Shown piece by piece: positions 10,012 to 61,943 of a stretch of 64,000 nt of DNA (position 1 is its first letter; each line of letters opens with the position of its first letter). The DNA comes from Desulfobacterales bacterium. GTDB lineage: Bacteria > Desulfobacterota > Desulfobacteria > Desulfobacterales > UBA5852. The stretch is taken from NCBI GenBank assembly GCA_049366795.1, contig JBMNCP010000062.1:6201-70200 (forward strand). The letters run 5' to 3'. Under the pieces are notes generated by a model. It saw nothing but the letters and a program-made list of their open reading frames with translations. It made no database searches and had not been told where the DNA came from. A program made the position numbers and the translations under genes.

Positions 10012-10032
10012 TGAGAGCGCGAGGAGCCCTTC

Positions 10033-10956: not shown

Positions 10957-11015
10957 TCCCCTTGCAATGAAAAAGGATGGAGGATCTTCAATAGAAACCT
11001 GACGAGGACGAACGC

Positions 11016-44564: not shown

Positions 44565-45880
44565 ATCCCGATACCGATCTCCTGCAGATTGCCACGACCC
44601 ACCGCAACTGTGATTTCGATGGACTGGCTTCCGTGGTCGCCGCCACGCTCCTGTATCCAGGCGCCGTGCCGATCGTCCCGACCGCCGTCAATGCCAATGT
44701 GAAGGCCTTTCTCTCCTTTCACAAGGACATGCTGGACGTCAGGGCGCCGGATGATGTGGATCTCCAGAAAGTCGGCCGCCTCATCGTACTGGATACGGCC
44801 CGGTGGGACCGGCTGGACCGGATGTCGCCGCTGGAGAACAAACCGGGGCTCGAAATCGTGCTGTGGGACCATCACTCGGATGTGGGAACCATCGAGGCCG
44901 CTTCCGCCGTTACGGAAGTGATCGGCGCTACGATAACGCTTCTGATTCGGGAGTTGAGGCGCCTGAAAATCCCGCTGACGCCGATGATGGCCACCCTTTT
45001 TCTGTGCGGGATCTACGAGGACACCGGCAACCTGACCTTTACGTCGACGACCGCCGAAGACGCTTACGCGGCCGGATGGCTTTTGGAGCAGAAGGCCGAC
45101 CTTCACGTGCTGGAGCGGTTTCTCCGCCCCGCCTACGGTCAGAAGCAGAAGGAGGTTCTGTTCCAAATGCTTCAGAAGGCCGAGCGGGGGACCGCCCGCG
45201 GGCACTCGATCAGCATCTGCAGCATCGACGTGACCGGGCATGTGGGCAGCCTTGCCATCGTGGTCCGGATGTACAAGGACATCGTCAACGTGGATGCGGC
45301 GATCGGCATCTTCAGGGACACGGCCGGCGATCGCTGCATCGTCATCGGCCGCAGCCAGCCCGATACGATCGACATGGGGGTGCTGATGCGGGCGCTCGGC
45401 GGCGGGGGACACGCAGGGGCGGCCTCCGCGCTCGTCAAGGGGGCCCGCCCCGAGGCCATCGAGGAGATGATCCTTTCCCTGATTTACGGAAACCAACAGG
45501 CGTCGGTTCAGATGAGCGACCTCATGTCGTTTCCGGTCGTTGCCGTCACTCCGGACACCTCCATGGACCAGGTCGCGAAAGTGCTTCGAAGCCGGGGGTT
45601 CACCGGGCTTCCGGTCATGGACGACGGACGTCTGGTGGGAATGATTTCACGCCGCGATTTTCGCAAGGTGCGGAAGGAATCGCAGCTCAAGGCGCCCGTG
45701 AAGGCCTTCATGGCGACGAAAATCATAACCATCGAACCGGGGGCGAGCCCGCTCCAGGCGGCCCATCTCATGGTGAAGCACGATATCGGGCGGCTCCCGG
45801 TGGTAGAAAACGACCGGGTCATCGGAATCGTCACCCGCTCGGATTCCATGACCTACTTTTACGATCTGCTGCCGGATTGA
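44561..45880 (+). CDS. DHH/DHHA1 phosphoesterase domain fused to a CBS pair
   Basis: DHH motifs NCDFDGLAS, VLWDHHSD and DHHA1 LGGGGHAGAAS. The C-terminus carries two CBS repeats (MSFPVVAV...LPVMDDGRLVGMISRRD; IITIEP...LPVVENDRVIGIVTRSD). Confidence 0.8.
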   Translation: MNPDTDLLQIATTHRNCDFDGLASVVAATLLYPGAVPIVPTAVNANVKAFLSFHKDMLDVRAPDDVDLQKVGRLIVLDTARWDRLDRMSPLENKPGLEIVLWDHHSDVGTIEAASAVTEVIGATITLLIRELRRLKIPLTPMMATLFLCGIYEDTGNLTFTSTTAEDAYAAGWLLEQKADLHVLERFLRPAYGQKQKEVLFQMLQKAERGTARGHSISICSIDVTGHVGSLAIVVRMYKDIVNVDAAIGIFRDTAGDRCIVIGRSQPDTIDMGVLMRALGGGGHAGAASALVKGARPEAIEEMILSLIYGNQQASVQMSDLMSFPVVAVTPDTSMDQVAKVLRSRGFTGLPVMDDGRLVGMISRRDFRKVRKESQLKAPVKAFMATKIITIEPGASPLQAAHLMVKHDIGRLPVVENDRVIGIVTRSDSMTYFYDLLPD

Positions 45881-45991
45881 TGTGACGGTGTACCGACGCG
45901 CCGCGGGTCCGGCAGCCGAAACCGATGGATCGTCGCGAGGTTCCGGGTTCGAAGGGAGGCGGTGCCGGACGTAACCGGGCCGGGGCCGGGT

Positions 45992-46546
45992 TCAGCCGAT
46001 GCGGCTCCGGTAGTCCTGAACGATTCGTTCGATTCGGCCCCGAATGAACTCTGCCAGGTCTTCCGCCTCGCTCCTCGTCATGATTTGGATGGTTTCGGCC
46101 AGTTCGGCAATGCGATCGTCGGGAATGTCGGTGGTCTTGTTGATCATGAAGTCGTCGACCTCCCCGTCTTCCAGCAGCCGGCCGCAGCCGCCGGCCGCGC
46201 CCAGAAACTCCCCGTCGACGAAGATCGGCACCACGATCTTGATCAGCCCCGCGTCGCACTCCTCGATGATAAAGTTCTTCGTGTTCTGCGCCATGGCGGC
46301 CATGTTCTGGTGGGCGACGGCGCAGATGTAGGTCTGGCCTTTTCCAGTCGCCCGGATCTCGGAGCAAAGCTCGCCGGTCGGGGCACTTTTTCCGCTGATG
46401 CCGATACCGTCGATATCGTAGACGCGGGCGCGCATCCCGGAGCGCTGGCGGATTTCCTCCTCCAGCTTCCCCCAATTTTCCGCGGGTTGCAGATCCGTCA
46501 ACAGCATGGATCGGTCTCCTTTCGCTGTCCTTCTGATTTGAGCCAT
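45992..46546 (-). CDS. Stand-alone PocR sensory-domain protein
   Basis: ~170-184 aa. Cys/His pattern ...CSEIR...YICAVAHQN...ECDAGLIKIVVPIFVDGEFLGAAGGCG is consistent with a PocR ligand-binding domain. The start is at 46546 or 46507; both overlap the oleD 3' end. Confidence 0.6.
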   Translation of the reverse strand: MAQIRRTAKGDRSMLLTDLQPAENWGKLEEEIRQRSGMRARVYDIDGIGISGKSAPTGELCSEIRATGKGQTYICAVAHQNMAAMAQNTKNFIIEECDAGLIKIVVPIFVDGEFLGAAGGCGRLLEDGEVDDFMINKTTDIPDDRIAELAETIQIMTRSEAEDLAEFIRGRIERIVQDYRSRIG

Positions 46547-47529
46547 TCTTCCAGCAGCCGCAGCCCCTGGTCAATGGAGACCGCCGGATCGTAGCCGAGG
46601 TCCCTCCTGGCGGCCCCGATGTCGAACCAGTGGCTGGTGGCGAGTTCCTCGGCGACGAATCGGGTCATCGGGGGTTCGCCGGGCAGTCGGAAGGTCCGAT
46701 AGGCCCATTCCATTGTTGCCCCCAGTCGCCGCGCCGCGGCGGTCGAAATGCTTCGTCTGACCGGCGGCATACCGCCGGCGGAAAGAATGCCGTCCACCAT
46801 CTTCCAGAGCTGGATGGGCTGTCCGTTGGAGACGAAATAGACGCGTCCGCTGAGCGAGGGGGTTTCCGCCAGTCGGTGGAGCGCCAGCAGGTGGGCGTCA
46901 GCGGCATTGTCGATGTAAACGGTGTCGACCCGGTTCATGCCGTTTCCGACCCGGACCAGCCGCCGCCCCCGTGCCAGGATCCGCGGAACGAGATGGTTGT
47001 CGCCCGGCCCCCAGATGAGATGGGGACGCAGACAGATCGTCCGGAGTTCATCGCTCGCGGCCTCCCGGACGGCCGTTTCCGCAAGCGCCTTGCTGGCGGG
47101 GTAGGGGGCGTGGAATTGCCGCGCCAGGGGAACGGATTCGTCCACGCCTTCCATGTCCAATCCGTCGAAGACCACGCTGGGGGAGCTCGTGTAGACCAGG
47201 CGGTTGACGCCCGCGGCCCGGCAGGCGGCGATGACATTGAGGGTGCCTTCCGTGTTCGTCCGGTGGTAGGCTTCCCACGGCCCCCACACGCCGGCTCTTG
47301 CGGCCGTATGAACGACGGCGTCAACACCTTCGACGGCTGTCTTCACCGCATCGGGGTCCGCAATATCTCCCGCGATCTGCTCGACCCCGAGGGCGTCGAG
47401 AGCGGAATGACGCCGCCTGGAAAAGCTGCGGAGCCGGTGGCCGTGCTTCAGGAGCTTTTGGACAATCGCGCCGCCCAGGAATCCGCCGCCCCCGGTGACC
47501 AGAATCGTTTCCGCACCATGGATTCGCAT
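46498..47529 (-). CDS. oleD: OleD: NAD(P)H-dependent 2-alkyl-3-ketoalkanoate reductase (3-beta-HSD/epimerase family)
   Basis: Rossmann motif VTGGGGFLGGAIV and catalytic YPASK. The start codon directly abuts the oleC stop. Position in the oleABCD order supports the call. Confidence 0.8.
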   Translation of the reverse strand: MRIHGAETILVTGGGGFLGGAIVQKLLKHGHRLRSFSRRRHSALDALGVEQIAGDIADPDAVKTAVEGVDAVVHTAARAGVWGPWEAYHRTNTEGTLNVIAACRAAGVNRLVYTSSPSVVFDGLDMEGVDESVPLARQFHAPYPASKALAETAVREAASDELRTICLRPHLIWGPGDNHLVPRILARGRRLVRVGNGMNRVDTVYIDNAADAHLLALHRLAETPSLSGRVYFVSNGQPIQLWKMVDGILSAGGMPPVRRSISTAAARRLGATMEWAYRTFRLPGEPPMTRFVAEELATSHWFDIGAARRDLGYDPAVSIDQGLRLLEEWLKSEGQRKETDPCC

Positions 47530-49242
47530 TCAGCGCTCCTCCGGCGCCTGGATTTTTCCCTTCAGTTTTCCCGCCGCCCAGTCCGCCAGTTTTTCCCTGA
47601 ATATCTTTGAGTTGTGCCGGATGTCGACCGGAAACGACCGGTGGTAGAGGATGGTCTGAATGCCCTGGGTCAGTGGGTTTTCTCGGCCCAGCTCCAGAAG
47701 GTCCCGGGTCAGCTGCTCCCGGTCGGCCCGGGAGTGTTCAGAGACCGTCTCGATACAGATGACGGGCGTCTGGCGTCCGGGGTCTCCGATGCCCACGAGG
47801 GCGCTCCGGAGCACGGACGGATGACGGTTGAAAACGGCCTCGCAGGGGATCGTGAAAAGATCGCCATTCGGCGTGGTCACCCGGTGGCTTTTCCGGCCGC
47901 AGAACCAGATCCGGCCCTTGGAATCCCTCCAGCCCAGATCTCCCATCCGGTGCCAGAATCCGTCTCCATCCTGGATCTTGTGGAGGGTATCGGCCTCGGG
48001 GTTGTCGAAGTAGCGGCGTGTGACGATCGGACCCTTGACGGCAATCTCTCCGATGTCGCCGTCCCTGACCTCCAGCTCATCGGTCCAGGCGGCGATGGGA
48101 CTGTCGGAGATCCGGATGATGCGCACCGCGATGTCGTTGATGGGGCGGCCGACACAAATCCCGAAGCCCTGGTCGCTCAGCCTGCGGGTCTCCGACAGGA
48201 TTTCCCGGCTGCCGATGGAGAGGACCGGGACCGCTTCGGTGGCCCCGTAAGGTGTGTGCACTTCCGCTGACTCGGCAAGCATCGCGGAGAATTGCTCGAT
48301 ATTGTCGGGGGAAACGGGCGCCCCCGCGGATACGACCCTTCGCAGCGACGGCATCCGGATTCCGTTCGCCTTGCCGAACCCGCCCACCCGGTTGAGAAGG
48401 GCCGGTGAGGCGAACATGTTCGTTACGCCGTGATTGAGGATCGGCTCGATGACAGCATCCGGGTTCACGGCGGCCGGCCGGGTCGGGTCCATGTCCGGGA
48501 TCACGGCGGTCATTCCCAGCGCGGGATCGAAAAGGGCGAAAAGCGGAAACGTGGGAAGGTCGATCTCATCGTCGGCGATGGCGAAGTGGGCCTGGATCTG
48601 CTCGATCTGTGCATCGAAGTTGCCGTGGGTGTAGACGGCGCCCTTTGCGGGGCCGGTGCTGCCGGTCGTAAAGAGGATGGCGGCGGCATCGTCACGCCGG
48701 GTGCCGGCAGGCGTGTAGGGACGCCAGGGCCTGTGATACAGGCCGTGAAGCGTCGTGGCGCCGAAAAACCAACGCGGTCCGACCACCACGGATGTCTTGA
48801 TCGACTGGAATGCCTCCCGGAAGAGACCTCGAAGCAGGTGGGCCTTCGGGATGCCCACGAAGGCCCGGGAGCGGGTCGACCGAAGGCACTCCACCATTCG
48901 CTGTATTCCCATGCCCGGGTCCACCACGACCGGGATGGCGCCGGCTTTGAACAGGGCGAAGGTCAGTACGAAGAAGTCGATCCCCGGCGGGACCATCAGC
49001 ACCGTCCGCACGCCCTTCTGGATGCCGGCGGCCGCCAGCCCGTGAGCCAGGCAGTCCGATTCCCGGTCCAGTTGTTCGAAGGTGAGATGGACGTAGGCCG
49101 CGCGGCCGAACCGGTCCCTTCCCGCGGTGCAGACCACCGCCCGCTTGTAGGGATGACGGGCGGCCGTATCCCGCAATCGGTTGGCAATGTTGACCGTGTC
49201 CGGGGTGAAGTATTCGTTTTCCGTCATATGGCTCAGTGTCAT
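47530..49242 (-). CDS. oleC: OleC: AMP-dependent synthetase family beta-lactone synthetase
   Basis: AMP-binding motif ILFTTGSTGPAKGAVYTH. ~570 aa. ATG 49242 overlaps the oleB stop (ATGA). The track start at 49287 is an extension. Confidence 0.8.
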   Translation of the reverse strand: MTLSHMTENEYFTPDTVNIANRLRDTAARHPYKRAVVCTAGRDRFGRAAYVHLTFEQLDRESDCLAHGLAAAGIQKGVRTVLMVPPGIDFFVLTFALFKAGAIPVVVDPGMGIQRMVECLRSTRSRAFVGIPKAHLLRGLFREAFQSIKTSVVVGPRWFFGATTLHGLYHRPWRPYTPAGTRRDDAAAILFTTGSTGPAKGAVYTHGNFDAQIEQIQAHFAIADDEIDLPTFPLFALFDPALGMTAVIPDMDPTRPAAVNPDAVIEPILNHGVTNMFASPALLNRVGGFGKANGIRMPSLRRVVSAGAPVSPDNIEQFSAMLAESAEVHTPYGATEAVPVLSIGSREILSETRRLSDQGFGICVGRPINDIAVRIIRISDSPIAAWTDELEVRDGDIGEIAVKGPIVTRRYFDNPEADTLHKIQDGDGFWHRMGDLGWRDSKGRIWFCGRKSHRVTTPNGDLFTIPCEAVFNRHPSVLRSALVGIGDPGRQTPVICIETVSEHSRADREQLTRDLLELGRENPLTQGIQTILYHRSFPVDIRHNSKIFREKLADWAAGKLKGKIQAPEER

Positions 49243-50198
49243 GGGCACAGTGGGTGCTGCTCCAGAAAGTCGATCGTTTCCCTGCATACGGCTTCAGGCT
49301 CGTCCTCGAGAAGGTAGTGGCCGGCATCCGGAAACACGCGGCACCGGGACGTTGGAAAACGTCGCCGCCACTCGTTGTAGTAATCCCGGTCAAAAACGAA
49401 ATCCCGCATTCCCCAGCAGATCAGCGTCGGGACCTGGGCCAGGAGATGAAGGCGCCGGTCGGTTTCGCGAACGATAGAATAACCCGGATCGCCGGGCCGA
49501 AGGGGTATGTCCTGAACGAACCGCAGGGTTGCCGTTCGATTTCGCGGCCGGTCGTAGGGGGCGATCAATCCTTTTCGGACCTCCGGGTCCAGACGTTTGC
49601 GGGGAGCCATCACGAGTGCGCCCCGGGCGAAAAGATTGAAGCCCAGGACGGCGGGGACGCCGAACCATGCCAGGTTGCGGATCAACCGCAGGCGCTTCGG
49701 GATCGGCTTGCCGGCCGGCGGGAGAAAGCCCGACGTGTTGGTGACGACCAGACGACCGACGCGTTCGGGATGGCGCGTTGCGTAAACCAGTCCGATCATG
49801 CCGCCCCAGTCGTGCAGCACCAGCGTCAGGCGGTCCTTGAGCCGCATGCCGTCCAGAAAAGCCTCGAGATCGGCTGCCCGGTCTTCGAGACGGAAGCCGT
49901 AACCGGTTTTTCGGGGCTTCTCCGAGAGGCCGCAGCCGATGTGGTCCGGGGCGATCACCCGGTAATGCTCCCTCAGCGCTCCGACCAGGCTGCGGAAGTA
50001 GAAGGACCAGGTGGGGTTGCCGTGCAGGAGGACGACGGGATCGCCCTTTCCTTCGTCCAGGTAATGGTACTGCCGTCCGCGGACATTCGCGAAGTGAGAG
50101 GCAAAGGGATACAGGGCCTCGAATTCCGCGCTGCCGAAAAAACCGGCCGGCCGGGATGAGCCGCGAGTGCCGGTTCGAATCGCGGGCGCACCTACCAT
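49239..50198 (-). CDS. oleB: OleB: haloalkane-dehalogenase-like alpha/beta hydrolase (beta-lactone decarboxylase)
   Basis: HYLDEGKGDPVVLLHGNPTWSFYFR and the nucleophile elbow LVLHDWGGMIG. 7-nt overlap with the oleA 3' end. Confidence 0.8.
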   Translation of the reverse strand: MVGAPAIRTGTRGSSRPAGFFGSAEFEALYPFASHFANVRGRQYHYLDEGKGDPVVLLHGNPTWSFYFRSLVGALREHYRVIAPDHIGCGLSEKPRKTGYGFRLEDRAADLEAFLDGMRLKDRLTLVLHDWGGMIGLVYATRHPERVGRLVVTNTSGFLPPAGKPIPKRLRLIRNLAWFGVPAVLGFNLFARGALVMAPRKRLDPEVRKGLIAPYDRPRNRTATLRFVQDIPLRPGDPGYSIVRETDRRLHLLAQVPTLICWGMRDFVFDRDYYNEWRRRFPTSRCRVFPDAGHYLLEDEPEAVCRETIDFLEQHPLCP

Positions 50199-51232
50199 CT
50201 CAGCCCCATCATCAGGCAGTTGAGTCCGCTGCCGATCCCCAGAAAGCCAACCCGGTCGCCCGATTCCAGAAAACTTCTCTCGTGGGCGATGGCAGCGGTG
50301 ATGAAAAGCGATACGGTCCCGATGTTGCCGAGGTACCGGAACGTGCTGAAGTCCTTGGATACCGGAATTCCGATGCCGTCCAGGATCGTCTTCTGGTGGG
50401 CCGCGCCGACCTGGTGGCAGATGATTTTATCGGGAGCGTCCGGCCCCCATTCCAGTTCCTTCCGAAACGCCTTGAAGGTGTCGACGCCCAGGGCGACGCC
50501 GTTTTTGAGCACGCCCACCGAGTCGGTGTTCATCACGTGCGGAAGGGTGGCCGGGATCCCGGTGTCCGGGCCCCATGTGCACAGGCGATGGTGCCGAACA
50601 CTGTTCCGGACGATTCCGCCCAGAAGACGATGGCCTGCGGATCCGAACGAGCCGTCCGTCAAGACGGCCGCCGCCGCTCCGGAACCGCCCGTGAGGGTTG
50701 CAACCGTGGTTTTGAACACCTCCATGCTCCGGGTTTCGATAAGCCTCTCGATGGTGCTCTCGACGATTTGCCGGCAGGATTCGCAGGCAACGACGATACC
50801 GGCGCGGATCTGGCCAAGCTCGATCGCGTTGGCGATCTGCACCATGCCGTTGAGCATGCCCAGGCAGGCATTGGAGACGTCGTAGACCTGCGCCTCCGGG
50901 CTCAGGCCAAGACCGTCGGCGACCGCGCAGGCGGTGGCCGGTTCGAGGTTCTCACGGCAGACGGCGCCATAGATGAGCATACCGATTTCGCTCGCCGGAA
51001 CGCCCGATGTCTCCAAGGCCTTCCGGCCGGCCCGGACCCCGCCCTCGGACAGGCGGAACTCCTCGTCCCAGTACCGGCTTTCCTGGATGCCGGTGATCTG
51101 CTCGAGCTGGCCGGGCTTGAGGTGCAACGCCTCGTATACCGGGGCAAGCCGGGACTCGATGTCGTCCGAGGTCACCACGTTGGGGGCCAGCTCGTAGCCG
51201 ATGGAATCGAGGTACACGTTTCGATATTTCAT
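50192..51232 (-). CDS. oleA: OleA: FabH-like thiolase-superfamily condensing enzyme
   Basis: Active-site DVSNACLGMLNG, ENLEPATA, and the C-terminus FLGIGSGLNCLMMGLRW. These closely follow my recollection of Xanthomonas OleA (…LLGIGSGLNCSMAEVVW). First gene of the oleABCD order. Confidence 0.8.
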   Translation of the reverse strand: MKYRNVYLDSIGYELAPNVVTSDDIESRLAPVYEALHLKPGQLEQITGIQESRYWDEEFRLSEGGVRAGRKALETSGVPASEIGMLIYGAVCRENLEPATACAVADGLGLSPEAQVYDVSNACLGMLNGMVQIANAIELGQIRAGIVVACESCRQIVESTIERLIETRSMEVFKTTVATLTGGSGAAAAVLTDGSFGSAGHRLLGGIVRNSVRHHRLCTWGPDTGIPATLPHVMNTDSVGVLKNGVALGVDTFKAFRKELEWGPDAPDKIICHQVGAAHQKTILDGIGIPVSKDFSTFRYLGNIGTVSLFITAAIAHERSFLESGDRVGFLGIGSGLNCLMMGLRW

Positions 51233-51256
51233 GATCTCAGCGGGTCGATCGTCGGG

Positions 51257-54200
51257 TTAATCCGCGTTCGCGGCGTCCGCAACCAGGCGAACACCGAAAT
51301 TCAGCAGCTTATAAATGAAAAGGCCGTCCACTTTCAAGGCGCCGTCGATCCGGAATTCGGATCCGTTGTCCCCATCCTCCTCTTCGCAGGAGGCTTCGAC
51401 GACGATGGTCTTGTTGGAAGGCAATATCTGTCCGCGATACTGCCAGGTATGCGGGCTTCCGACGCGAAGCTCCAGCCTGTGGCCCGGATACCGGGTGCGC
51501 CAGATGTCGAGGGCGGCGCACCGGGCCATCTGGATCAGGGATTCGATGCCAAGGGAGCCCGGGCAAACAGGATCCTGGTGAAAATGAGCCTTGAAGTACC
51601 ATGCGGCGGGGTCGACATCCTTGAACCCTCGCATCTCCAGAACCCTTCCGCCGGCGGTCTGCCGGGGAGCCACCTGGATCCGGTCGATCATGCGAATGGC
51701 CCGAGCCGGAAGGCCGGGCGGGAAATCCGGTTCGTCCACGCGGTCTTCCGGCAAGAAAGGCGGCAGGTCCGTCAGGGTTTCGACCGGAACTGCGGTGGAT
51801 TCGGCCCCGACGCCGGCATCGAATGTCTCGCGGATGCCTCTTTGTTCGTCCAGGGCCTCCGCGGTAAAGAACCCGAAGCCGGTCCTGCCGGTGTAGACGG
51901 GGCTGCCTTCCCGCGACACCTCGAATTCGAACTGTTCGATGATCATATCCCCCGCGGACGAGGCGCGCAGGAGGCGGCAGCGTGTCGTCAGCGTGAAGGC
52001 GCCCCGGCGGACATTTTCATGAATCGTGGCGGTTCCGTCCAGATTGCGGAAGTGAAGGTCCTGTTCGCTTTTCAGCGCCGAACCCATGTAGGCTGCCAGA
52101 AATCCGCAGGACTGAAGCGCGATTTCCATGAGAACGCAAAGCGGCATCACGTCCGAACGGTTGGCTTGAAAATACCAGTGCCAGGGCTTGACGTCGAATT
52201 CCGTCTGGAGCCATCCGCCGGGCTCGAGCACCCAGGGTTCGGGCTCGGCAACGGTCACCCGGTCGATAAAGGAGTAGGGCGGCGCGGGAAGCCTGGCGAT
52301 GAACCGTCCGTCGTCGAACGGCCGGTAGCGGCTGCCGAAGGCGTCCGAGGGCCTTCCGGAGGCGAAGGCGAGGATGTGGCGGCGTTCGAAAACCGCCGGG
52401 ACTGTCCTGCCCGGCACTGGACGGTGTTCCGAACGCTTCCTCCAGAACTGCTTTAAGTCAGATTCCCCAACATTCGATAATTTAAGCGACATCCCCTTGA
52501 ATCGGACGATCCGCCGTCCGTCTGCGATCATCATGGCGTCGGCGATCGCGAAGGGTTCGGGATTCGATCCGATGTCGGTGATCTCGATTTCGTAAACCAC
52601 TTTTTTCGTTTCGGGCGTGACCGGCCCCCTGCATTTGAGAACCGCGGGCGCGGTCGTCAGCGGCTCGAAGCGAGCCTCCTCGTTCGGGCTGACCCATCCC
52701 ATCCCCTGCAACAGGACGCGGAGGGCGTGGGCGCAGCACTCATACATCAACGTGCCGGGCATGACCTGGTCATCCACGAAATGGCAGGTGAGAAACCAGT
52801 CGTCCGGCCGGATGTCCGCCTCGGCGCGGATGGCCCCCAGCCCGCCCGTGCCGCCGAAAGGATCCAGGTCGAGAACCCGGTGGATCAGACGCATCCGTCC
52901 GGCTGGCAGGCGCTGGCCTTCCGGGAGTCTGATGCCCGCGAAATCCGCTCCGAATGCCTTCTCGAGATCGCCGTCCCTCAGCGCATCGAGAGCCTCGTCG
53001 TCAATCCGTCGGGAGCGAACGGCGACCAGCGGCTCCGCCCCGCCCGCCGGAACCGGTGTTTCTTCGGGTTCGCCTGGCAGAATTCCGCCCGAGTTGCGGA
53101 CCTCTTCCTCGGTGAAGAAGCCGGCGCAGCCGTTTCGCATCGTGATCAACGGTTGTCCGGCGATCGATCCGTCGAATTCGAAAAAGAACATCCAGGTATC
53201 GCCCTGTTTGATGAATTTTTCGATCCGGATGTCGTAGCGGATCGTTTCTCCGGGAAGCGGCAACCCCCGGTGAAAGGTGACCGTGGCGTCGAGAAGCCGG
53301 TAGGTGCGCAGGCCCCTGACGTGGAGATCGATCCCAAGATAGGCGCACAAAAAGAGGTCGGCCTGGCCCGCCTCCACCGAAATGCAGACCGGCGCCCGGC
53401 CGCCGTCCAGGTACCACTGGTCCGGCAGGACATCGTGTTCCGTGACAATCCTTCCCGGTCCCAGCTGCCCTTTCCGGCCTTCGATCCGAAGGATCCGGTC
53501 CACCAGCATCAGGGGCTCGTCCGGCAGCCGGACCCGTACGCGATACCGGTCCACCTCCGCAAAATCGGGACCGAACAGGCGAGCAACGGATCCCACCGCG
53601 AACTCCATGCATTGCCCGCGGGTGAAGACAGGGGCGGGAATGCCGGAATGCGAAAATGCGGGAAAGCGGGGATGCGGGGGCGTGGAAAGCGCGGTTTCCG
53701 GGGTATCCGGGACGTTGGGCGCTGGAACGGCTGAAGACGTTTTGCCGCCCGGTTTCGTTCCCGGGGGCGACGCCGCCAGCAGGCGGGATTTGAGTTCAAC
53801 CGCATCGGCGTACGACCGGATCCAGTCCTGAGATAGTGAAAGGAATCGCTCATGGGCCGCGCTGGTCTGCTCCGAGCTTTCGACGAGGTCCTGGACCAGC
53901 CGGTCGATCGATGGCTGGGCGAACGTCGGGTACGGGGTCGGCGGACCGGAGACGGACGCCGGTACCCGGTAAGAGGCCGCTTCCGGGGCGGGGGAGGGTG
54001 CATCGACGGCCAGGGCCGGAAGCGCCGGCCAGTCGATCGACTTTCCGCCGTTGACCACCCGGATCGATGCGGACGGATCGACCGAAGCCGTTTCCACGGC
54101 CGCCGGCCGGACGGTCAGAAGCGACCACTCCACCGGGACGCGGTGCACGGCCAGCGTTGCGGCGATCCTGGCGATGGCGGCAAAGTCGCCTTGGTGCCGA

Positions 54201-57200
54201 TGGGAGGCGGAAAGGGCCAGGTGAGGTCTGCCGTCGAGAATCTGCTGGATCATGCGCGTGCAGGAGGCCCCCGGCCCGGTTTCGATAAAGATGCGGACCC
54301 CGTCCCGGTAGACCCGCTCGACCAGCTTCGGGAAATCGAATCCGTCGAGCCCCTGCCGGAGGATGGACTCCGCCATGGCGTCGGACTCGATCCGGATCGG
54401 GGCGGCGTCCGCGCAGCCATAGAGCGTGATGCCGTTCAACTCCCGGACCGGCAGCCGGTGCAGGTCCCGGTAGGCATCGGCGGAAGGGGAAAGCGCGTCG
54501 CAGTGAACGCTGATCACCCCGTCCAGCGGTACGGCGTTGGCGCCGAGGCGCCGGACCAGCGCCTCCACCTGGGGGCGGTCCCCGCCGATGACGGATGCCT
54601 CGGGTGTGTTGACGATGAGCAGGCGAACGCGGGAAAATTCCTCCAGGGCCGATTGGATGGCGTCGGCCGGGCGGTCGACCACGACCGCGTGCCATTCGAA
54701 CGTTTCGGTTTCGGATAGCCCCCAGGCTTTGCGGGCCGAACGGCAGGCGCCGTAGAGCGCATGGGTGAACAGGTCCGTCTTCTGAATCCGCTTCAGCATC
54801 TCGTCGGGATGGGGCCATGCCCCGGTTGCGAAATAGGCGGCGGATTCGCCCAGGCTGTAGCCGAAAGCGGCGCGGGGCCTCAGCCCCAGGCGTTCGAGAA
54901 GGCGCGTCACCACCAGGCCGTGGGTGACGTGACCGCAAAAAAGATCCCTGGGATCCCGGGACAACCCGGCCATGGCCGCGGACTCCCAGCCGGGGGGCCA
55001 CTCGCTGCGGCACGGCAGAAGCCGTCCGGGGCGGGCTCGGTCCCGAAGCCTTCCCGTCTCCCGGTCCATTTCATCGAGAATGCCGGGCCAGAACAGTCCG
55101 ATCTCCCGCCCCATTCCCGGAAACTGGTTTCCCGATCCGGGATAGACCAGCGCCACTGCGGACGACGCGCCCAACGGGGCAGAGGCGTAGCAGGCGGCCG
55201 AGGTCGGCGTGAACCGGATTTCCGTTCCGTTCCGGATGGCAGTCCTGGCGGCTGCGATGGACCGTTTCAGCTCCCGGGGGTCGGAGCCCTCGACCGCGAC
55301 GGCGAGGCGAGCTCCGAAATCAGGGGGGTGTTCCCGAAGCCAGGCGGCCGCGGCGTGCCCGATCGGCCCGTCGAACTGCGAAGCCTCCCGTTCGAGCCGG
55401 TCCAGCCGGCTCAGGAGCGCATCCGGATCGGCCCCGTCGACCAGAAACATCCCCAGGGGCGGAAGGGACGCGGCATGGAGGCCCGCGGTCACGGGTACGG
55501 CGGCATCGGACGGTGCTTCCCGCAGCACCGCGGCCATGGCGACCCCATCCGGGGTCATGGCGCTGACGCAGGCACGTCGCGGGCCGTCTTCGCTATTCCG
55601 CAGCCAATAATGGGTGGCACGGGGAAGATGGAACCGCTCGGAATCCCACCCGGGCTCCTCGCCGACCGCGTATCCGGGAAGACCGGGGATCCGTCTCCGG
55701 TGGAGGCAAAGGGCGGTTTTCACGACGGCTGCCAGACCGGCGGCCGCCCCCGCGTGTCCGATCGCGGACTTGACGGAGCCGATCGCGCAGGGAAACGGGC
55801 GGGCCGGAAAGACGCGGTGGAATGCCTCCCTTTCCGCTCGGTCCTCCGGGGGAAACCCGCTGCCGTGGGATTCGACGTATTCGATTGCTTCCGGACCGAC
55901 CCCGGCGTCCCGGAATGCAAGCGCAATGGCGTCGGAACAAGCGGTCGAAGCAGGCGCCTCCGTGGGAGCGAATGCCCCGGAAACGGATCCCAGCCCATCC
56001 AGAACGGCGTAAATGCGGTCTCCGGAGGATGTGGCGTCGGATAGCCGCTTGAGCACCAGGGCGGCCGCACCTTCGCCGGGAAGACTGCCGTCGGCTTTCC
56101 GATCGAAGGGATGGACTGCCGGCCGGCCGGACCATCCTCGAATGGCGTCCGCCGCAGCCATTTCCCGAAGGTCGCCCGGGAGATCCACCGCTCCGACCAG
56201 GACCGCGTCGACCTCGTGTCTTTGAAGCGACCGGGCGCCGATTTCGAGCGCCTTCATCCCGGAGGCGGCTTCACACGAGAGAACGAAGCTCGGGGCGCCG
56301 AACCGGAAGGCCTTTGCAATCCGGCTCGCGATCAGGCTTCCCAGGGCGCCCAGCGTCCGCACATGGGTGAGGGGGGGAGAAATGCCGTCGGCCAGGCGTT
56401 TTGCGCCACCCGCCGCCTCGACGGATTCAGTCCGAAGTCCATGTTTTCCTTCGAACTCCCGCAACAGGCGCCGCAGGCTCCAGCGCAGCTGAAACTGGGT
56501 TTCCTCGAAATCGAAACCCATGCCGATGACCGCCCCCATCCGGGGGCGTGCCGGTTCATCGGCCATGCCGGCGTCGGACAGGGCTTCCATCGCCACTGCC
56601 AGCATGAGCAGATGCTGCGGCAGAATATCGGGAATCTCCCTGGGCGGAATCGGAAATCTTCCCAGGGGGATGTCCAGGCGATCCAGGTAGTTTCCTTTCG
56701 GTGGGGAGCGGCGGAACAGGAGGTCCTGAACGGTGCGGCATCCTTTCCATCGGCTGGCGGGCGCTGAACCGAACTCATGGGCTTCCTTGAAAACCGCCTC
56801 CTCGAAAGCCTTCAACGAACCATATCGACCGAAGGCGGCCGACATGCCGACAATCACGACCGGCTCCTCGGCAGGCGGCGCCGGTGCGGCGACCGGCACG
56901 GACGTTTTTCCGGGAAGCCATTCCTCGACCAGGAGGTGAGCGTTGATACCGCCGAAGCCGAAAGCGCTGACCGCCGCTCGCCGCGGTGTGGCGGAATCCC
57001 TTTGATGCCAAGGTTCGGCGACCGTCTGGACCCTGAAGGGACCGTTTTCCAGCGGGCTTCCAGGACGCGGGCGGTTGAAGTTCAATGACGGCGGGAGCGT
57101 TCGGTGTTTCAGGCCGAGCAGGATTTTGATCAGGCCCGCGATGCCGGCCGCGGTGAGCAGATGGCCGATCGTCGACTTGACCGAGCCGATGGCGCACTGA

Positions 57201-58261
57201 CCCGGCGACCATGACGCACCTTCCCACAGCGCCCCGAGACTTTTGAGCTCGACCGCATCCCCGACCAGTGTGCCGGCACCGTGGCATTCGACCAGGTCCA
57301 CCTGGTCAGGGGTCCATCCGGCATCGGCGTAGGCCGCCCGCATCGCCCGCAGCTGGCCCTCCATCTCAGGCGCGAGCAGGCTGCCCCGCATGTCGTTGGA
57401 GAGGCCCATGCCTCGGATGATGCCGAGGATCGGGTCGCCGTTCCGAACGGCGTCCTCCAGGCGCTTGAGGACGACGAGCCCGGCGCCTTCTCCCACCACC
57501 AGACCGTCGGCATCCGCATCGAACGGAGCGGCGCGTCCGGACGGTGAAAGGGCCTGAAGCTGACTGAAGCCGATCTGCGTATAAAGGCAGTCGGGTCGCG
57601 AAACCCCGCCTGCGATCATGGCGTCCGCCCGGCCGGAACGAAGGGCGTCGCAGGCGAATTTGATTCCGAAAAGGGATGAGGCGCAGGCCGCGTCGAGCGT
57701 AAAGCTTCCGGCGCGGTAGCCGAAGGCACGGGCCAGTAGGGCCGCCGGCAGCGCCGTCACCCTGGAGGCCATCGCTTCGAGCGGCGTGACGGGATTTCGG
57801 GAACCGGCGGGTGATTCCGGAAACCAGCGGCGTTCGAGTTCCTTTCCGAACAGCTTCCGGGACAGTGCCGACGCCGCATCCGTGGGAAGGGCGATGGCGG
57901 CCAAAACCACGCCGATCCGCCCTGGATCCACGCTGTCGAGCCTTCCGGACTCCGCGATCTCCCTGCCGCAGTGGAGCACCAAATGATAAAGGGGATCCAG
58001 GGCCAGAAGGTGCTCCGGCGGAAGGAAATAACCGGTCGGGTCGAAGTCGAAGTCGAGAATCAAACCGGCCCGGTTGGACACGGCCCGGTCCGGCTCGTTG
58101 CGGCTCGAAACGACCGACGCCGCCGGAGCGATCCATCGATCCTCAGGCACCGGCCCCGTGCAGTCGAGGCGATGGATCAGGTGGTCCCAGAACTCGTCCA
58201 GGGACCGGCTCCCCGGGAAAATCCCGGAAGCTTCGATGACGGCGATGGGATGGGAAGTCAT
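51257..58261 (-). CDS. PUFA-synthase-type megasynthase, PfaC/Pfa3-like: KS - CLF - AT - (FabA-like DH)x2, 2334 aa
   Basis: See the domain features below. No ACP, KR or ER segment is recognisable in this ORF. Confidence 0.88.
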   Translation of the reverse strand: MTSHPIAVIEASGIFPGSRSLDEFWDHLIHRLDCTGPVPEDRWIAPAASVVSSRNEPDRAVSNRAGLILDFDFDPTGYFLPPEHLLALDPLYHLVLHCGREIAESGRLDSVDPGRIGVVLAAIALPTDAASALSRKLFGKELERRWFPESPAGSRNPVTPLEAMASRVTALPAALLARAFGYRAGSFTLDAACASSLFGIKFACDALRSGRADAMIAGGVSRPDCLYTQIGFSQLQALSPSGRAAPFDADADGLVVGEGAGLVVLKRLEDAVRNGDPILGIIRGMGLSNDMRGSLLAPEMEGQLRAMRAAYADAGWTPDQVDLVECHGAGTLVGDAVELKSLGALWEGASWSPGQCAIGSVKSTIGHLLTAAGIAGLIKILLGLKHRTLPPSLNFNRPRPGSPLENGPFRVQTVAEPWHQRDSATPRRAAVSAFGFGGINAHLLVEEWLPGKTSVPVAAPAPPAEEPVVIVGMSAAFGRYGSLKAFEEAVFKEAHEFGSAPASRWKGCRTVQDLLFRRSPPKGNYLDRLDIPLGRFPIPPREIPDILPQHLLMLAVAMEALSDAGMADEPARPRMGAVIGMGFDFEETQFQLRWSLRRLLREFEGKHGLRTESVEAAGGAKRLADGISPPLTHVRTLGALGSLIASRIAKAFRFGAPSFVLSCEAASGMKALEIGARSLQRHEVDAVLVGAVDLPGDLREMAAADAIRGWSGRPAVHPFDRKADGSLPGEGAAALVLKRLSDATSSGDRIYAVLDGLGSVSGAFAPTEAPASTACSDAIALAFRDAGVGPEAIEYVESHGSGFPPEDRAEREAFHRVFPARPFPCAIGSVKSAIGHAGAAAGLAAVVKTALCLHRRRIPGLPGYAVGEEPGWDSERFHLPRATHYWLRNSEDGPRRACVSAMTPDGVAMAAVLREAPSDAAVPVTAGLHAASLPPLGMFLVDGADPDALLSRLDRLEREASQFDGPIGHAAAAWLREHPPDFGARLAVAVEGSDPRELKRSIAAARTAIRNGTEIRFTPTSAACYASAPLGASSAVALVYPGSGNQFPGMGREIGLFWPGILDEMDRETGRLRDRARPGRLLPCRSEWPPGWESAAMAGLSRDPRDLFCGHVTHGLVVTRLLERLGLRPRAAFGYSLGESAAYFATGAWPHPDEMLKRIQKTDLFTHALYGACRSARKAWGLSETETFEWHAVVVDRPADAIQSALEEFSRVRLLIVNTPEASVIGGDRPQVEALVRRLGANAVPLDGVISVHCDALSPSADAYRDLHRLPVRELNGITLYGCADAAPIRIESDAMAESILRQGLDGFDFPKLVERVYRDGVRIFIETGPGASCTRMIQQILDGRPHLALSASHRHQGDFAAIARIAATLAVHRVPVEWSLLTVRPAAVETASVDPSASIRVVNGGKSIDWPALPALAVDAPSPAPEAASYRVPASVSGPPTPYPTFAQPSIDRLVQDLVESSEQTSAAHERFLSLSQDWIRSYADAVELKSRLLAASPPGTKPGGKTSSAVPAPNVPDTPETALSTPPHPRFPAFSHSGIPAPVFTRGQCMEFAVGSVARLFGPDFAEVDRYRVRVRLPDEPLMLVDRILRIEGRKGQLGPGRIVTEHDVLPDQWYLDGGRAPVCISVEAGQADLFLCAYLGIDLHVRGLRTYRLLDATVTFHRGLPLPGETIRYDIRIEKFIKQGDTWMFFFEFDGSIAGQPLITMRNGCAGFFTEEEVRNSGGILPGEPEETPVPAGGAEPLVAVRSRRIDDEALDALRDGDLEKAFGADFAGIRLPEGQRLPAGRMRLIHRVLDLDPFGGTGGLGAIRAEADIRPDDWFLTCHFVDDQVMPGTLMYECCAHALRVLLQGMGWVSPNEEARFEPLTTAPAVLKCRGPVTPETKKVVYEIEITDIGSNPEPFAIADAMMIADGRRIVRFKGMSLKLSNVGESDLKQFWRKRSEHRPVPGRTVPAVFERRHILAFASGRPSDAFGSRYRPFDDGRFIARLPAPPYSFIDRVTVAEPEPWVLEPGGWLQTEFDVKPWHWYFQANRSDVMPLCVLMEIALQSCGFLAAYMGSALKSEQDLHFRNLDGTATIHENVRRGAFTLTTRCRLLRASSAGDMIIEQFEFEVSREGSPVYTGRTGFGFFTAEALDEQRGIRETFDAGVGAESTAVPVETLTDLPPFLPEDRVDEPDFPPGLPARAIRMIDRIQVAPRQTAGGRVLEMRGFKDVDPAAWYFKAHFHQDPVCPGSLGIESLIQMARCAALDIWRTRYPGHRLELRVGSPHTWQYRGQILPSNKTIVVEASCEEEDGDNGSEFRIDGALKVDGLFIYKLLNFGVRLVADAANAD
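51302..52504 (-). other. Megasynthase domain: dehydratase region 2 (pseudo-DH + FabA-like DH)
   Basis: PWHWYFQANRSDVMPLCVLMEIALQ segment, then AAWYFKAHFHQDPVCPGSLGIE (His2226, codon 51584-51586). Boundaries are approximate. Confidence 0.7.
52562..53659 (-). other. Megasynthase domain: dehydratase region 1 (pseudo-DH + FabA-like DH)
   Basis: TEHDVLPDQWYLDG segment, then FabA-type DWFLTCHFVDDQVMPGTLM (His1827, codon 52781-52783). Boundaries are approximate. Confidence 0.7.
54212..55144 (-). other. Megasynthase domain: acyltransferase
   Basis: VYPGSGNQFPGMG and the GxSxG motif AFGYSLGE (Ser1136, codon 54854-54856). Boundaries are approximate. Confidence 0.75.
55547..56815 (-). other. Megasynthase domain: chain-length-factor-like KS (active-site Cys replaced by Ala)
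   Basis: SFVLSCEAASG aligns to SFTLDAACASS, so the catalytic position (aa 665, codon 56267-56269) is Ala. His motifs ESHGSG and KSAIGH are retained. Boundaries are approximate. Confidence 0.7.
56852..58252 (-). other. Megasynthase domain: ketosynthase (active)
   Basis: DAACASS with Cys193 (codon 57683-57685). ECHGAGT and KSTIGH His motifs. GFGGINAHLLVEE end. Boundaries are approximate. Confidence 0.8.
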
Positions 58262-58399
58262 GAAAACAGTTGGCTCTGAGAATGACAGACCCCGGGCGCA
58301 GCATCCCGCACCCGGGTCAATATGATCGATCGGTGATTTTTATTCGTTCAGAAGCCTTCTTTCATACTCGAAATTCCCTGTCTCCGCAACCTTATAAAA

Positions 58400-58451
58400 G
58401 GCTAAAGGCGAAAGGCTAAAGGCGAAAGGGGAAAGGGCAAAGGGCAAAGGC
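58400..58451. repeat. Heptamer tandem array A (GGNNAAA x7)
   Basis: GGCTAAA GGCGAAA GGCTAAA GGCGAAA GGGGAAA GGGCAAA GGGCAAA GGC. Confidence 0.95.
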
Positions 58452-58649
58452 TGATGGTGAAGGGGTGAAAGATAATCGAGTTGGGAGTTGGGGCGATCCG
58501 GAGAGCGATTTCGCTTTCGTGCTTCTGACCGGGAATACGACTTGTTTTTTCCAGATACGCTCACTCGCTGGAGCATGGGAGCGAGGACATGACCCTCATT
58601 TCTGAATCGGACACGCTCGTTCCCATATCAAACCATCGCGGATGGGCAC

Positions 58650-58713
58650 CAGTTCACGGATCAGGACAATCGGCACACGGTTCACATCCCACGGTTCACG
58701 GCTCACGAATCAC
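58650..58713. repeat. Degenerate ACGGTTC-type heptamer repeats (distal part of the left IR arm)
   Basis: CAGTTCACGG ... CACGGTTCACATCC CACGGTTCACGGCTCACGAATCAC. Confidence 0.8.
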
Positions 58714-58730
58714 TCTCCGCCTTCTCCCTT

Positions 58731-58829
58731 GATCTTTGATCTTTGATCTTTGATCTATTATTCCTCGAGCCTTTAGCCCTTTCACTTTGGCCTTTAGCCT
58801 TTCCCCTTTAGCCTTTTTGCTTTTCCCCC
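58731..58829. repeat. Heptamer tandem array B: (GATCTTT)x3.7 then CTTTNNC units. Left inverted-repeat arm.
   Basis: GATCTTT GATCTTT GATCTTT GATCT ATTATTC CTCGAGC CTTTAGC CCTTTCA CTTTGGC CTTTAGC CTTTCCC CTTTAGC CTTTTTG CTTTTCC. The reverse complement matches arrays A and C. Confidence 0.95.
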
Positions 58830-58907
58830 AACGCCTTGACTTTCCAAAACGGAAGATTTAAAAAATTCCTTTCCTCGCCAACAAGTTTCCCTGGAGGTGG
58901 AATCAAA

Positions 58908-59498
58908 ATGACGGATCCAAGGCAGTCCTCGGAGAGCGAAGACCAGTTGCGGGCCATGCTTGCACGGACCGGTTACTCGGCAAAAGCCATCGATTACTAC
59001 ATCCGGAAACCCCACATGGGTTCCATCGAAAACGCCGATCAGATTTCGGAAATGGTCGGCACCTGCGGCGATTCCATGACGGTGTTCCTCAAGGTGGACC
59101 AAGGTCGCATCGAGGACGTGAAATACCAGATTCTGGGCTGTGCCGGCTCTATTTCCGCGGCGATGGCGGCGGTCGATCTCGTGAAGGGGAAAACGGTCGA
59201 GGAAGCCCTTGCGGTCGATGACGGCGATGTGTTCAAGTCCCTTGAGGAGATTCCGGCAAAGAAGCACCACTGCATTCAGCTTTCCGTGAAGGCCCTGCAA
59301 AAGGCCATCAGGGCCTACCAGAAGTCCAAGGGCGGCCAAGCGCTGATCTCCGCCGAGGTGCCTGCGGGACCGCCGCTGGCGGCGGGCAAGGGCAACGGTG
59401 AGACCGCTTGCTGCAAGCCCTCCCCGGGCAAGGGGAGTTGCGGCGGGAACGGCGGGGGATGCTGCGGTCATTCGGGCGGCCCGAAAATCGGCAATTAG
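58908..59498 (+). CDS. NifU/IscU N-terminal-domain-like Fe-S scaffold protein with a Cys/Gly-rich C-terminal tail
   Basis: Three scaffold cysteines in GTCGDSM, LGCAGSIS and KHHCIQLS. ATG 58908 is preceded by GGAGGTGG. Tail GETACCKPSPGKGSCGGNGGGCCGHSGG. Confidence 0.8.
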   Translation: MTDPRQSSESEDQLRAMLARTGYSAKAIDYYIRKPHMGSIENADQISEMVGTCGDSMTVFLKVDQGRIEDVKYQILGCAGSISAAMAAVDLVKGKTVEEALAVDDGDVFKSLEEIPAKKHHCIQLSVKALQKAIRAYQKSKGGQALISAEVPAGPPLAAGKGNGETACCKPSPGKGSCGGNGGGCCGHSGGPKIGN

Positions 59499-59532
59499 AG
59501 CCGAACGATCTGGATTCCAATTTTCATGCGAC

Positions 59533-59570: not shown

Positions 59571-59621
59571 GCGGGAAGGCCGATCCGTAACGGTTGAGGG
59601 ATCGGAACGGGCAAATCACTG

Positions 59622-60233
59622 ATGACCGGTTATCGAGACGAGCAGCTCGAATGCCATCGGCAGGTCCGTGATGCCATCGCCAGGATGGGCGAGGTTGAAA
59701 AGGCCGCCCTTTTGAATGAGATCACACCCTACCTGGAGCTTCGCCGCCAGGTCGACCGCTTCCAGGAGGCTTTTTTCAGCGACACGTGTTCGGAGGCCTG
59801 CTTCAACAGCCGATTGAGTGCGTGCTGCACCAAGGACGGCATCATCACCTTTTTTGCGGATCACGCGATCAATGCGCTGACCGCACCGCTCGAATCCTTG
59901 AAATCGCTCATCGATGCCCTGACCGGCCATCGTTCCACCGGCAAATGCATCTACCTGGATCCCGGTGGCTGCCGCTGGCATATCAAGCCCGTCATTTGCG
60001 AAATGTTTCTGTGCGAGCCTGCCGCGCGCAACATCTTCTCCCTTTACCCCGAGGCCGGCCGTGAGTGGCAGCGGCTTCAAGCCGCCATCAAGGCGTTTCG
60101 ATGGCCCATCAGGCCGGTTCTCTTCGATTCCCTCGAAAAACGGTTCATCGCCCTGGGCGTCGATTCCCCCCTGATGCATCTGCACAAAAGCCCGGGGCTC
60201 ATCCGTCTCAAACAGCGTCATGGGGTGGAGTGA
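59622..60233 (+). CDS. Cys-rich YkgJ/UPF0153-like (putative Zn/Fe-chelating domain) protein
   Basis: CSEACFNSRLSACC and GKCIYLDPGGCRWHIKPVICEMFLC resemble the two halves of the CxxCxxCC-family domain. 203 aa. Confidence 0.55.
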   Translation: MTGYRDEQLECHRQVRDAIARMGEVEKAALLNEITPYLELRRQVDRFQEAFFSDTCSEACFNSRLSACCTKDGIITFFADHAINALTAPLESLKSLIDALTGHRSTGKCIYLDPGGCRWHIKPVICEMFLCEPAARNIFSLYPEAGREWQRLQAAIKAFRWPIRPVLFDSLEKRFIALGVDSPLMHLHKSPGLIRLKQRHGVE

Positions 60234-60309
60234 GGAAAGGCGAAAGGCGAAAGGCTCAAGGCTAAAGGCTAAAGGCTCGAGGGATAGATCAAAGATCAAA
60301 GCAGAAAGC
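60233..60309. repeat. Heptamer tandem array C: GGNNAAA units then (GATCAAA). Right inverted-repeat arm.
   Basis: GAGGAAA GGCGAAA GGCGAAA GGCTCAA GGCTAAA GGCTAAA GGCTCGA GGGATAG ATCAAAG ATCAAAG CAGAAAG. Starts at the last base of the stop codon of the YkgJ-like gene. Confidence 0.95.
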
Positions 60310-61942: not shown

Positions 61943-61943
61943 G

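Follow-up and report, generated by a model that had tools for sequence, protein, structure and literature searches.

A probable six-gene operon linking one Pfa synthase subunit to the Ole head-to-head olefin pathway in an uncultured Desulfobacterales bacterium

Do the genes of a polyunsaturated fatty acid (PUFA) synthase and those of an olefin pathway form a single unit in this Desulfobacterales bacterium, and if so, what would that unit make? The question is raised by a 64,000 nt stretch of contig JBMNCP010000062.1 (assembly GCA_049366795.1), hereafter the window. Its proteins, which belong to a metagenome-assembled genome, are 100% identical to NCBI records numbered MFZ71268xx. Between 45.9 and 58.3 kb of its minus strand, the open reading frame (ORF) list, Pfam and NCBIfam together reveal a tight row of ORFs with the order pfaBC-oleA-oleB-oleC-oleD-pocR. 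We consider it likely that this row is a six-gene operon coupling one subunit of a Pfa synthase to the Ole head-to-head olefin pathway. An initial annotation, made from the letters of the window, had listed the first five of these ORFs, all of which were found where it placed them; the sixth, pocR, was absent from it. The components of the row are as follows.

51257..58261, minus strand: pfaBC, a fusion of ketosynthase, chain-length factor, acyltransferase and two dehydratase units (KS-CLF-AT-DH2), 2334 aa (NCBI record MFZ7126818)
51233..51256, minus strand: spacer of 24 nt from the pfaBC TAA to the oleA ATG (sequence read directly)
50192..51232, minus strand: oleA, predicted thiolase-fold, head-to-head Claisen condensing enzyme, 346 aa (PDB, NCBIfam)
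49239..50198, minus strand: oleB, haloalkane dehalogenase-like alpha/beta hydrolase, predicted beta-lactone decarboxylase, 319 aa
47530..49242, minus strand: oleC, putative beta-lactone synthetase of the ANL superfamily, 570 aa (NCBIfam)
46498..47529, minus strand: oleD, putative 2-alkyl-3-oxoalkanoate reductase of the short-chain dehydrogenase/reductase type, 343 aa (NCBIfam)
45992..46507, minus strand: pocR, stand-alone PocR sensory-domain protein, 171 aa (Pfam PF10114)

Direct reading of the junctions confirmed how closely the ole genes are packed. Between oleA and oleB there is a 7 nt overlap of stop and start (ATGGTAG), oleB and oleC share an ATGA, and the oleC TGA abuts the oleD ATG with zero gap, all as first described; the pocR ATG, at 46507, gives a 10 nt overlap with the end of oleD and is preceded, at a distance of 8 nt, by an AGGAG. 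The longest possible ORF in the oleC frame extends to 49287, and the 570 aa start at the ATGA agrees with the NCBI-annotated protein MFZ7126815. At the boundary between pfaBC and oleA, the initial annotation had counted 22 nt and two in-frame stop codons; the spacer is in fact 24 nt, with the TAA as the single in-frame stop and the TGA in the spacer out of frame. The proposal that the ole genes are translationally coupled to the megasynthase therefore stands only in part: coupling is plausible at the oleA-oleB, oleB-oleC, oleC-oleD and oleD-pocR junctions, where the genes overlap or abut, whereas between pfaBC and oleA, which do not overlap, the spacing is compatible with coupling and makes it only possible. 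Co-transcription of pfaBC with oleABCD is very likely, because a 24 nt spacer leaves no room for a terminator; a terminator scan found matches inside the operon at chance level (17 against 16.1 expected).

Whether the row could direct olefin synthesis turns first on its FabH-like condensing enzyme. By its matches the protein clearly belongs to OleA, as the initial annotation had it, and not to FabH or KAS III (in round figures, E values of 1e-57 and 3e-13, respectively). The top twelve PDB matches are Xanthomonas OleA structures (3fk5, 3row, 3s21, 4kti and entries beginning 5vx and 6b2), all aligned over the full length with E values between 9e-58 and 1e-55, whereas the best genuine FabH in the PDB is matched at 2.9e-13 over around 115 residues and that of Escherichia coli at 1.8e-5. 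Profile scores agree, with 462 bits against NF006720 (cut-off 285), a score above the cut-off of PRK09258 and 53.6 bits against the fabH model TIGR00747 (cut-off 292). Residues C123, E97, H273 and N303 align with Cys143, Glu117, His285 and Asn315 of the X. campestris enzyme and are invariant across 37 homologues, several of the closest of which bear the Joint Genome Institute label 'acyl-CoA:acyl-CoA alkyltransferase'; the OleA of the window itself is represented in Logan by one 1.9 kb contig only. Non-decarboxylative, head-to-head Claisen activity is accordingly the predicted function of this protein.

The three genes that follow complete a contiguous, co-oriented set in the order A-B-C-D. 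OleB matches Pfam Abhydrolase_1 at 4e-34, and its best NCBIfam and PDB matches are haloalkane dehalogenases (HLDs; PRK03592 at 166 bits, PDB structures at 1e-37 to 1e-29). It has an HDWGG motif containing the D130 nucleophile, GNPTW at 60-64 and a C-terminal H294. It hence has the Asp nucleophile and His base of an HLD-type alpha/beta hydrolase, and its gene overlaps both oleA and oleC. OleB as characterised by Christenson et al. in 2017 reportedly looks just like such a hydrolase with an Asp nucleophile, and we predict that the protein is a beta-lactone decarboxylase. OleC matches NF006754 (PRK09274) over its whole length at 748 bits, against a cut-off of 478, and carries the motif TGSTGPAKG at 193-201; generic acyl-CoA ligase models score at most 170 bits on it, far below the olefin beta-lactone synthetase models. 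For OleD, the two OleD models rank first, ahead of HpnA at 145 bits, and the protein has the motifs GGGGFLG at 13-19 and Y143xxxK147. For both OleC and OleD, the Ole-specific NCBIfam models are the best matches, exceeding all others three- to four-fold in bits. The assignment of the four downstream genes to the Ole type is thus upheld by the OleA structures, by these models and by the HLD-like OleB with its Asp. In public annotation the same proteins are named generically, as '3-oxoacyl-ACP synthase III', 'alpha/beta fold hydrolase', 'fatty acid CoA ligase family protein' and 'NAD-dependent epimerase/dehydratase'; assigning them Ole functions therefore usefully updates their annotation.

The gene at the head of the row encodes a protein in which five regions can be delimited approximately.

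56903-58249, minus strand: KS
55682-56851, minus strand: CLF
54194-55237, minus strand: putative PfaB-type AT
52382-53881, minus strand: DH unit 1
51260-52381, minus strand: DH unit 2

Pfam finds two ketoacyl-synt, two Ketoacyl-synt_C and four FabA stretches in it. The first ketosynthase module has an intact triad (C193, H327 and H367); the second is taken to be the chain-length factor because Ala replaces the active Cys (SCEAASG, 662-668). The four FabA-type hot-dog stretches make up two double DH units, both of which keep the active-site His (H1827 and H2226/2228) in the motif HFxxDxV(M/C)PG, as HFVDDQVMPG and HFHQDPVCPG. The protein thus has the make-up typical of PfaC, in which two FabA-like DH units come after the KS and CLF. 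The domain content initially claimed was recovered by Pfam and NCBIfam: KS-CLF-AT-DH-DH, the AT being sub-threshold, and downstream of it FabH-like, alpha/beta hydrolase, AMP-binding and 3beta-HSD/SDR proteins.

How far this arrangement extends beyond one contig was judged from contigs of relatives carrying homologous genes, designated by L numbers. L003, a contig from a Desulfobacteraceae metagenome-assembled genome, is syntenic from pfaA, DUF2914, cdaA-ybbR, NifU, pfaBC, oleABCD and pocR through to DUF711. Eight further OleA homologues, with 67-78% identity, lie on long contigs, and all eight have pfaC or pfaBC directly upstream, as either an AT-less pfaC (1886 aa) or a pfaBC of around 2340-2400 aa; the gap from its end to the oleA start ranges from -4 to +91 nt, and the farther flanking genes vary despite the constancy of this junction. 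A metagenome scan added 80 loci, forming 75 clusters at 97% oleA nucleotide identity. Of 55 de-replicated clusters, 52 had a PfaC or PfaBC C terminus no more than 1 kb upstream of oleA. In 41 of the 49 with enough downstream DNA, oleB came next after oleA, and oleB, oleC and oleD all followed in A-B-C-D order in 19 of the 26 loci whose length allowed three to be seen; the survey comprised 19 AT-containing PfaBC and six AT-less PfaC proteins. How often pfa and ole genes adjoin, a point on which the initial annotation had called for a survey, is given by these 52 clusters together with the eight long contigs. The order is not due to chance, because it recurs in dozens of independent contigs, and by this measure the linkage is a stable, selected feature of the clade rather than a chance adjacency.

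The same comparison bears on whether the ole genes might instead use acyl-CoAs derived from the fatty acid synthase of type II (FAS II), as in Xanthomonas and Stenotrophomonas, with the adjacency of pfaBC being inherited synteny devoid of metabolic meaning. The downstream genes for DHH-CBS, orf279, FMN_dh, ACT and DUF711 are shared by L003, L007 and L016, so part of the arrangement may be simple vertical inheritance in one family. However, the short pfaC-oleA gap is kept despite wholly different neighbours in L007, L010, L015 and L017, the link itself holds in nearly all of the surveyed clusters, and the Shewanella OleA takes Pfa-derived chains only, even though FAS II is present (PMC6463001). 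We therefore find this explanation improbable, and retain that in which a Pfa synthase supplies OleA.

Variants of the arrangement were also seen. In eight of the 49 clusters (L015, at 10001-12203; L055, at 8001-10540; L023, L027, L030, L039, L042 and L097), pfaBC is directly followed by oleA with no oleB, oleC or oleD within 2-8 kb; in this sub-lineage oleA instead precedes fabD (TIGR00128, 309 bits), dksA, a PHP gene and the gene for RNase III. Where oleBCD are not encoded at another site in the genome, ketones would be the expected products of OleA by itself. L007 (4334-9994) encodes an AT-less PfaC (KS-CLF-DH2, 1886 aa), and the 4.3 kb upstream of it contains Tricorn-like and unknown genes and no pfaA. 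In L004 (5258-10834), from Candidatus Desulfaltia, an AT-less PfaC gene follows pfaA, with no ole genes within the next 10 kb.

The sixth gene of the row encodes a 171 aa protein matching PF10114 at 6e-17 and likewise annotated by NCBI. Another ORF at this site, 45831..46574 (247 aa), was rejected: it has no Pfam match, and the true gene is the PocR frame. pocR probably closes the operon. Among the relatives it lies directly after oleD in L003, L010, L017, L034, L046 and L064, with one gene between in L007/8, and others are without it; in the survey it is within 1.5 kb after oleD in six of 15 clusters. PocR homologues with 51-56% identity sit in unrelated neighbourhoods, not beside ole genes, which weakens a general PocR-ole link, and a literature search pairing PocR domains with ole genes returned nothing relevant. 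Any role of pocR in the pathway would be a presumed one.

These patterns also admit a reading in which the conserved functional unit of the Desulfobacterales is not pfa plus ole clusters but the pfaC(BC)-oleA pair: OleA would dock on or assemble with PfaC, some lineages would make ketones or use unlinked OleBCD, and PocR would join the pathway as a new accessory part, sensing or binding hydrocarbon or lipid. The pair can be seen as the unit because it is so regularly kept, sometimes far from pfaA, and in about a sixth of cases has no oleBCD nearby; in a subset of genomes, moreover, pocR is plausibly coupled in translation to oleD. We regard this as an unlikely, speculative account next to the operon proposed above, in which pfaBC and all four ole genes act together.

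An operon of this composition encodes part of a Pfa synthase, and the remaining subunits have to be sought upstream, where two features are relevant.

58836..59498, plus strand: NifU/IscU-like scaffold gene (NifU_N), divergent from pfaBC
62561..64000, minus strand: 3' end of a pfaA-like gene (ketoreductase, KR, and polyketide synthase-type DH), running off the window end (Pfam, TIGR02813)

The pfaA-like end matches Pfam KR (3.2e-22) and PS-DH (1.1e-12), and covers positions 2121-2567 of the 2582 in TIGR02813 (omega_3_PfaA) at 239 bits. It lies 4.3 kb upstream of pfaBC, the interval being occupied by genes for DUF2914 and a CdaA-YbbR protein, an ORF of unknown function and the plus-strand NifU-like gene, 3' of which is a strong 12 bp hairpin with a T-run (59532-59562, plus strand). 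The syntenic orthologue in L003 scores 1227 against TIGR02813 (cut-off 1010) and has three PP-binding stretches, which suggests that the PfaA of the window also has tandem acyl carrier proteins (ACPs). A homologue search with the PfaA C terminus gave mostly fragments, among which the protein of the window itself did not appear, and was useful through L011 alone; there, PfaD is encoded upstream of pfaA (TIGR02814, 635 bits, cut-off 449). No PfaE was seen in any locus examined, and among ORFs of at least 220 aa in the 1-46 kb part of the window there was no enoyl reductase (ER), phosphopantetheinyl transferase (PPTase) or thioesterase. Judging by these relatives, the wider locus very probably encodes the full Pfa synthase.

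Several observations weigh against the proposed operon and its function. By its position, pfaA is in a transcription unit separate from that of pfaBC, so that the initial claim of pfa and ole being fused into one transcription unit holds for the pfaBC subunit and fails for pfaA, which stands behind intervening genes, including the plus-strand NifU-like gene with its terminator-like hairpin. Neither pfaD (ER) nor pfaE (PPTase) was found in the window, and L007, L010 and L017 have no pfaA within 2.7-4.3 kb upstream of pfaC. The AT of PfaBC is assigned only by a GxSxG motif (GYSLG, S1136) and by two sub-threshold profiles, TIGR02816 of the PfaB family (residues 1009-1343, 99.6 bits against a cut-off of 144) and Pfam Acyl_transf_1 (26.5 against 32.7). 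For OleB, the libraries searched (NCBIfam and PDB) yielded no specific model or structure. OleC falls below the cut-offs of the olefin beta-lactone synthetase equivalogs (603.5 against 900 for NF045786; 596.9 against 850 for NF045785), and is thus OleC-like, yet by the NCBI criterion no equivalog of the Xanthomonas and Shewanella enzymes; OleD likewise scores below its equivalog cut-off of 580 (409.8 bits for NF042422, 374.5 for NF042423). Lastly, sequence is no guide to how long the chain of the product is or how far it is unsaturated.

The shortfall of OleC and OleD against strict equivalog cut-offs could be taken to favour an end product other than an olefin, namely a beta-lactone or another OleA-derived natural product of the lipstatin or nocardiolactone type, made by OleACD; homologues of OleA, OleC and OleD are common to beta-lactone pathways (PMC7064751). 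The window has, on the other hand, an HLD-like oleB with its Asp nucleophile and His, overlapping both neighbours, and oleB follows oleA in most of the related clusters. To our knowledge, beta-lactone clusters are characteristically without OleB. Because oleB is present, the beta-lactone end product allowed for in the initial annotation is very improbable indeed, and decarboxylation to an olefin is the preferred outcome.

A broader doubt concerns the Pfa-like synthase, which might make another 'secondary lipid' (saturated, monounsaturated or a stand-alone PUFA), with OleABCD then giving a non-polyene olefin or ketone rather than a compound like the C31:9 polyene of Shewanella. The products of the deltaproteobacterial pfaBC-fusion types C, I and K are listed as uncharacterised (PMC3098273), PfaBC is just 47-57% identical even to its Desulfobacterales relatives, and ketones would be the products of OleA alone in those clusters in which nearby oleBCD are lacking. 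Against this, the active-site His is kept in both of the FabA-type (isomerising) DH units, and Geobacter bemidjiensis, with a Type I pfaBC fusion and tandem oleABCD, does make C31:9 (PMC4882568, PMC3098273). We consider such an alternative product doubtful, and a polyene remains the product we favour.

From the observed gene identities, order, junctions, catalytic residues and conserved linkage, a pathway can be proposed. PfaBC, together with the separately transcribed PfaA (KS, malonyl-CoA acyltransferase, multiple ACPs, KR and DH) and the required PfaD, which would lie outside the window as it does upstream of pfaA in L011, would produce a medium-chain polyunsaturated acyl thioester. OleA would join two acyl chains head to head, in a non-decarboxylative Claisen condensation, to a 2-alkyl-3-ketoacid; OleD would reduce this; OleC, with ATP, would close the product of OleD to a beta-lactone; and OleB would decarboxylate the latter to a very-long-chain cis-olefin. 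We infer that the Pfa synthase is the source of the OleA substrate and, by analogy with Shewanella and G. bemidjiensis, that the product may be a polyene of the C31:9 type. If so, very-long-chain polyunsaturated hydrocarbons could be made anaerobically by an uncultured bacterium of the sulfate-reducer type and by its sediment relatives, a large clade. This would matter for tracing where the C31:9-type polyenes of anoxic sediments come from, and for the debate over whether pfa genes primarily provide a hydrocarbon precursor or membrane PUFA.

The DNA around the row contains further features, among them the region from which the operon would be transcribed.

58262..58835, no strand assigned: divergent intergenic region of 574 nt between pfaBC (minus strand) and the NifU-like gene (plus strand) (sequence)

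This region presumably holds the operon promoter and 5' leader. It contains AAAGGCN eight times at 58397-58451, TTGATCT four times at 58729-58756 and an inverse array at 58768-58816; a promoter scan was at chance level, its single sigma-70-like match (58785-58757, minus strand) being not above chance. Heptamer arrays (AAAGGCN, TTGATCT and CTACTTT-like), direct and inverted, occur at 58397-58451, 58729-58816, 60236-60282 and 60391-60467, surrounding the NifU-like gene and the DNA upstream of pfaBC and making imperfect inverted repeats of 48-54 nt. These intergenic heptamer and nonamer arrays are not kept in the syntenic region of L003 and have no Rfam match; an Rfam scan of the whole window matched no family. 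The NifU-like call agrees with the NifU found in L007 and L011, and a minus-strand ORF at 58794..59471 was rejected as an antisense shadow of the NifU_N frame. Next to it, the ORF pair 59616..60299 (minus strand) and 59622..60233 (plus strand) has no family match on either strand. Between pfaA and pfaBC, a fusion of a CdaA-type diadenylate cyclase (DAC) with YbbR (CdaR-like), 482 aa, is encoded at 60494..61942 (minus strand); with the DUF2914 gene it occupies 60494-62396 on the same strand. This insertion appears to be a conserved feature of the pfa locus in the lineage, since it is shared with L003 and L011. Downstream of the row, two tandem arrays with a 9 nt period, at 40054-40213 and 43557-43679, are mutually inverted, consisting of GATAGTTAA repeated 17 times and its reverse complement repeated 12.6 times, and flank the DUF711-ACT-FMN_dh gene group. 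The rest of the window is housekeeping in character, encoding isoleucyl-tRNA synthetase, pyruvate kinase, EF-G, ABC transporters and signalling proteins.

It remains to set the locus against known systems. The initial annotation, with the unlinked loci of Shewanella in view, implied that the linkage was novel; tandem pfa-ole arrangements had already been published (PMC4882568, PMC6463001, PMC3098273). Papers dating back to 2010-2016, that of Yoshida et al. among them, describe such linkage, some of it in the form of direct tandem clusters in anaerobic Deltaproteobacteria. Shulse and Allen (2011) noted that 'ole genes are often linked' and described deltaproteobacterial pfaBC-fusion clusters, Type I occurring in Geobacter and others and Type C, of Desulfatibacillum alkenivorans, having exactly the order KS-CLF-AT-DH2 (PMC3098273). 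Allemann et al. (2019) reported adjacent pfa and ole operons in Photobacterium profundum SS9, and showed that OleA links the two pathways in vivo by drawing its substrate from the Pfa synthase (PMC6463001). Our scan of genome contigs with PfaBC gave five loci, one of them an unrelated Paenibacillus polyketide synthase, from neither Geobacter nor named Desulfobacterales isolates; the Type I and Type C clusters are compared here by their published descriptions.

The closest parallel is the Bem strain of G. bemidjiensis, with its tandem pfaD-A-B-C-oleA-B-C-D-pfaE cluster and production of hentriacontanonaene, C31:9 (PMC4882568). It too belongs to a strictly anaerobic 'deltaproteobacterial' lineage and has a pfaC-type gene, the Type I pfaBC fusion, followed by oleABCD on the same strand; L011 further resembles it in having pfaD upstream of pfaA. 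By the published description of the Geobacter cluster, the window differs in that pfaA and pfaBC are split by DUF2914, cdaA-ybbR, an unknown ORF and the opposite-strand NifU-like gene, and in that oleD is followed by a PocR-domain gene and not by pfaE. The Type C cluster of D. alkenivorans AK-01, likewise from the Desulfobacterales, shares the pfaBC order (PMC3098273), and has pfaD at its 3' end, whereas no ER gene follows the cluster here.

Among the Gammaproteobacteria, Shewanella oneidensis MR-1 has the same enzyme set, pfaEABCD and oleABCD (SO1742-1745), and a chemistry that is presumably shared, in which a Pfa-derived 16:4 chain passes through OleA, OleD, OleC and OleB to a polyene (PMC6463001); its pfa and ole loci are unlinked, however, and its PfaB and PfaC are separate proteins. 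In SS9 the pfa genes physically adjoin the ole genes, as here, but in two operons with the thioesterase gene pfaT (orf6) between them, and there is no detectable polyunsaturated hydrocarbon (PMC6463001); a hot-dog thioesterase gene of this kind was not found in the window. OleABCD of Xanthomonas campestris are likewise encoded by four separate genes in the same order, and its OleA aligns end to end with that of the window, with the Cys, Glu, His and Asn conserved and a 9-residue insertion, in the region of TGIPATLPH, in the protein of the window; the Xanthomonas pathway draws on acyl-CoAs that derive from FAS II, and pfa genes are not linked to it. Hence the locus is a further example of the published pfa-ole linkage and no conceptual advance, with modest local peculiarities in the separation of pfaA from pfaBC, the coupling of pocR to oleD and a sub-lineage in which pfaBC-oleA stands without nearby oleBCD.

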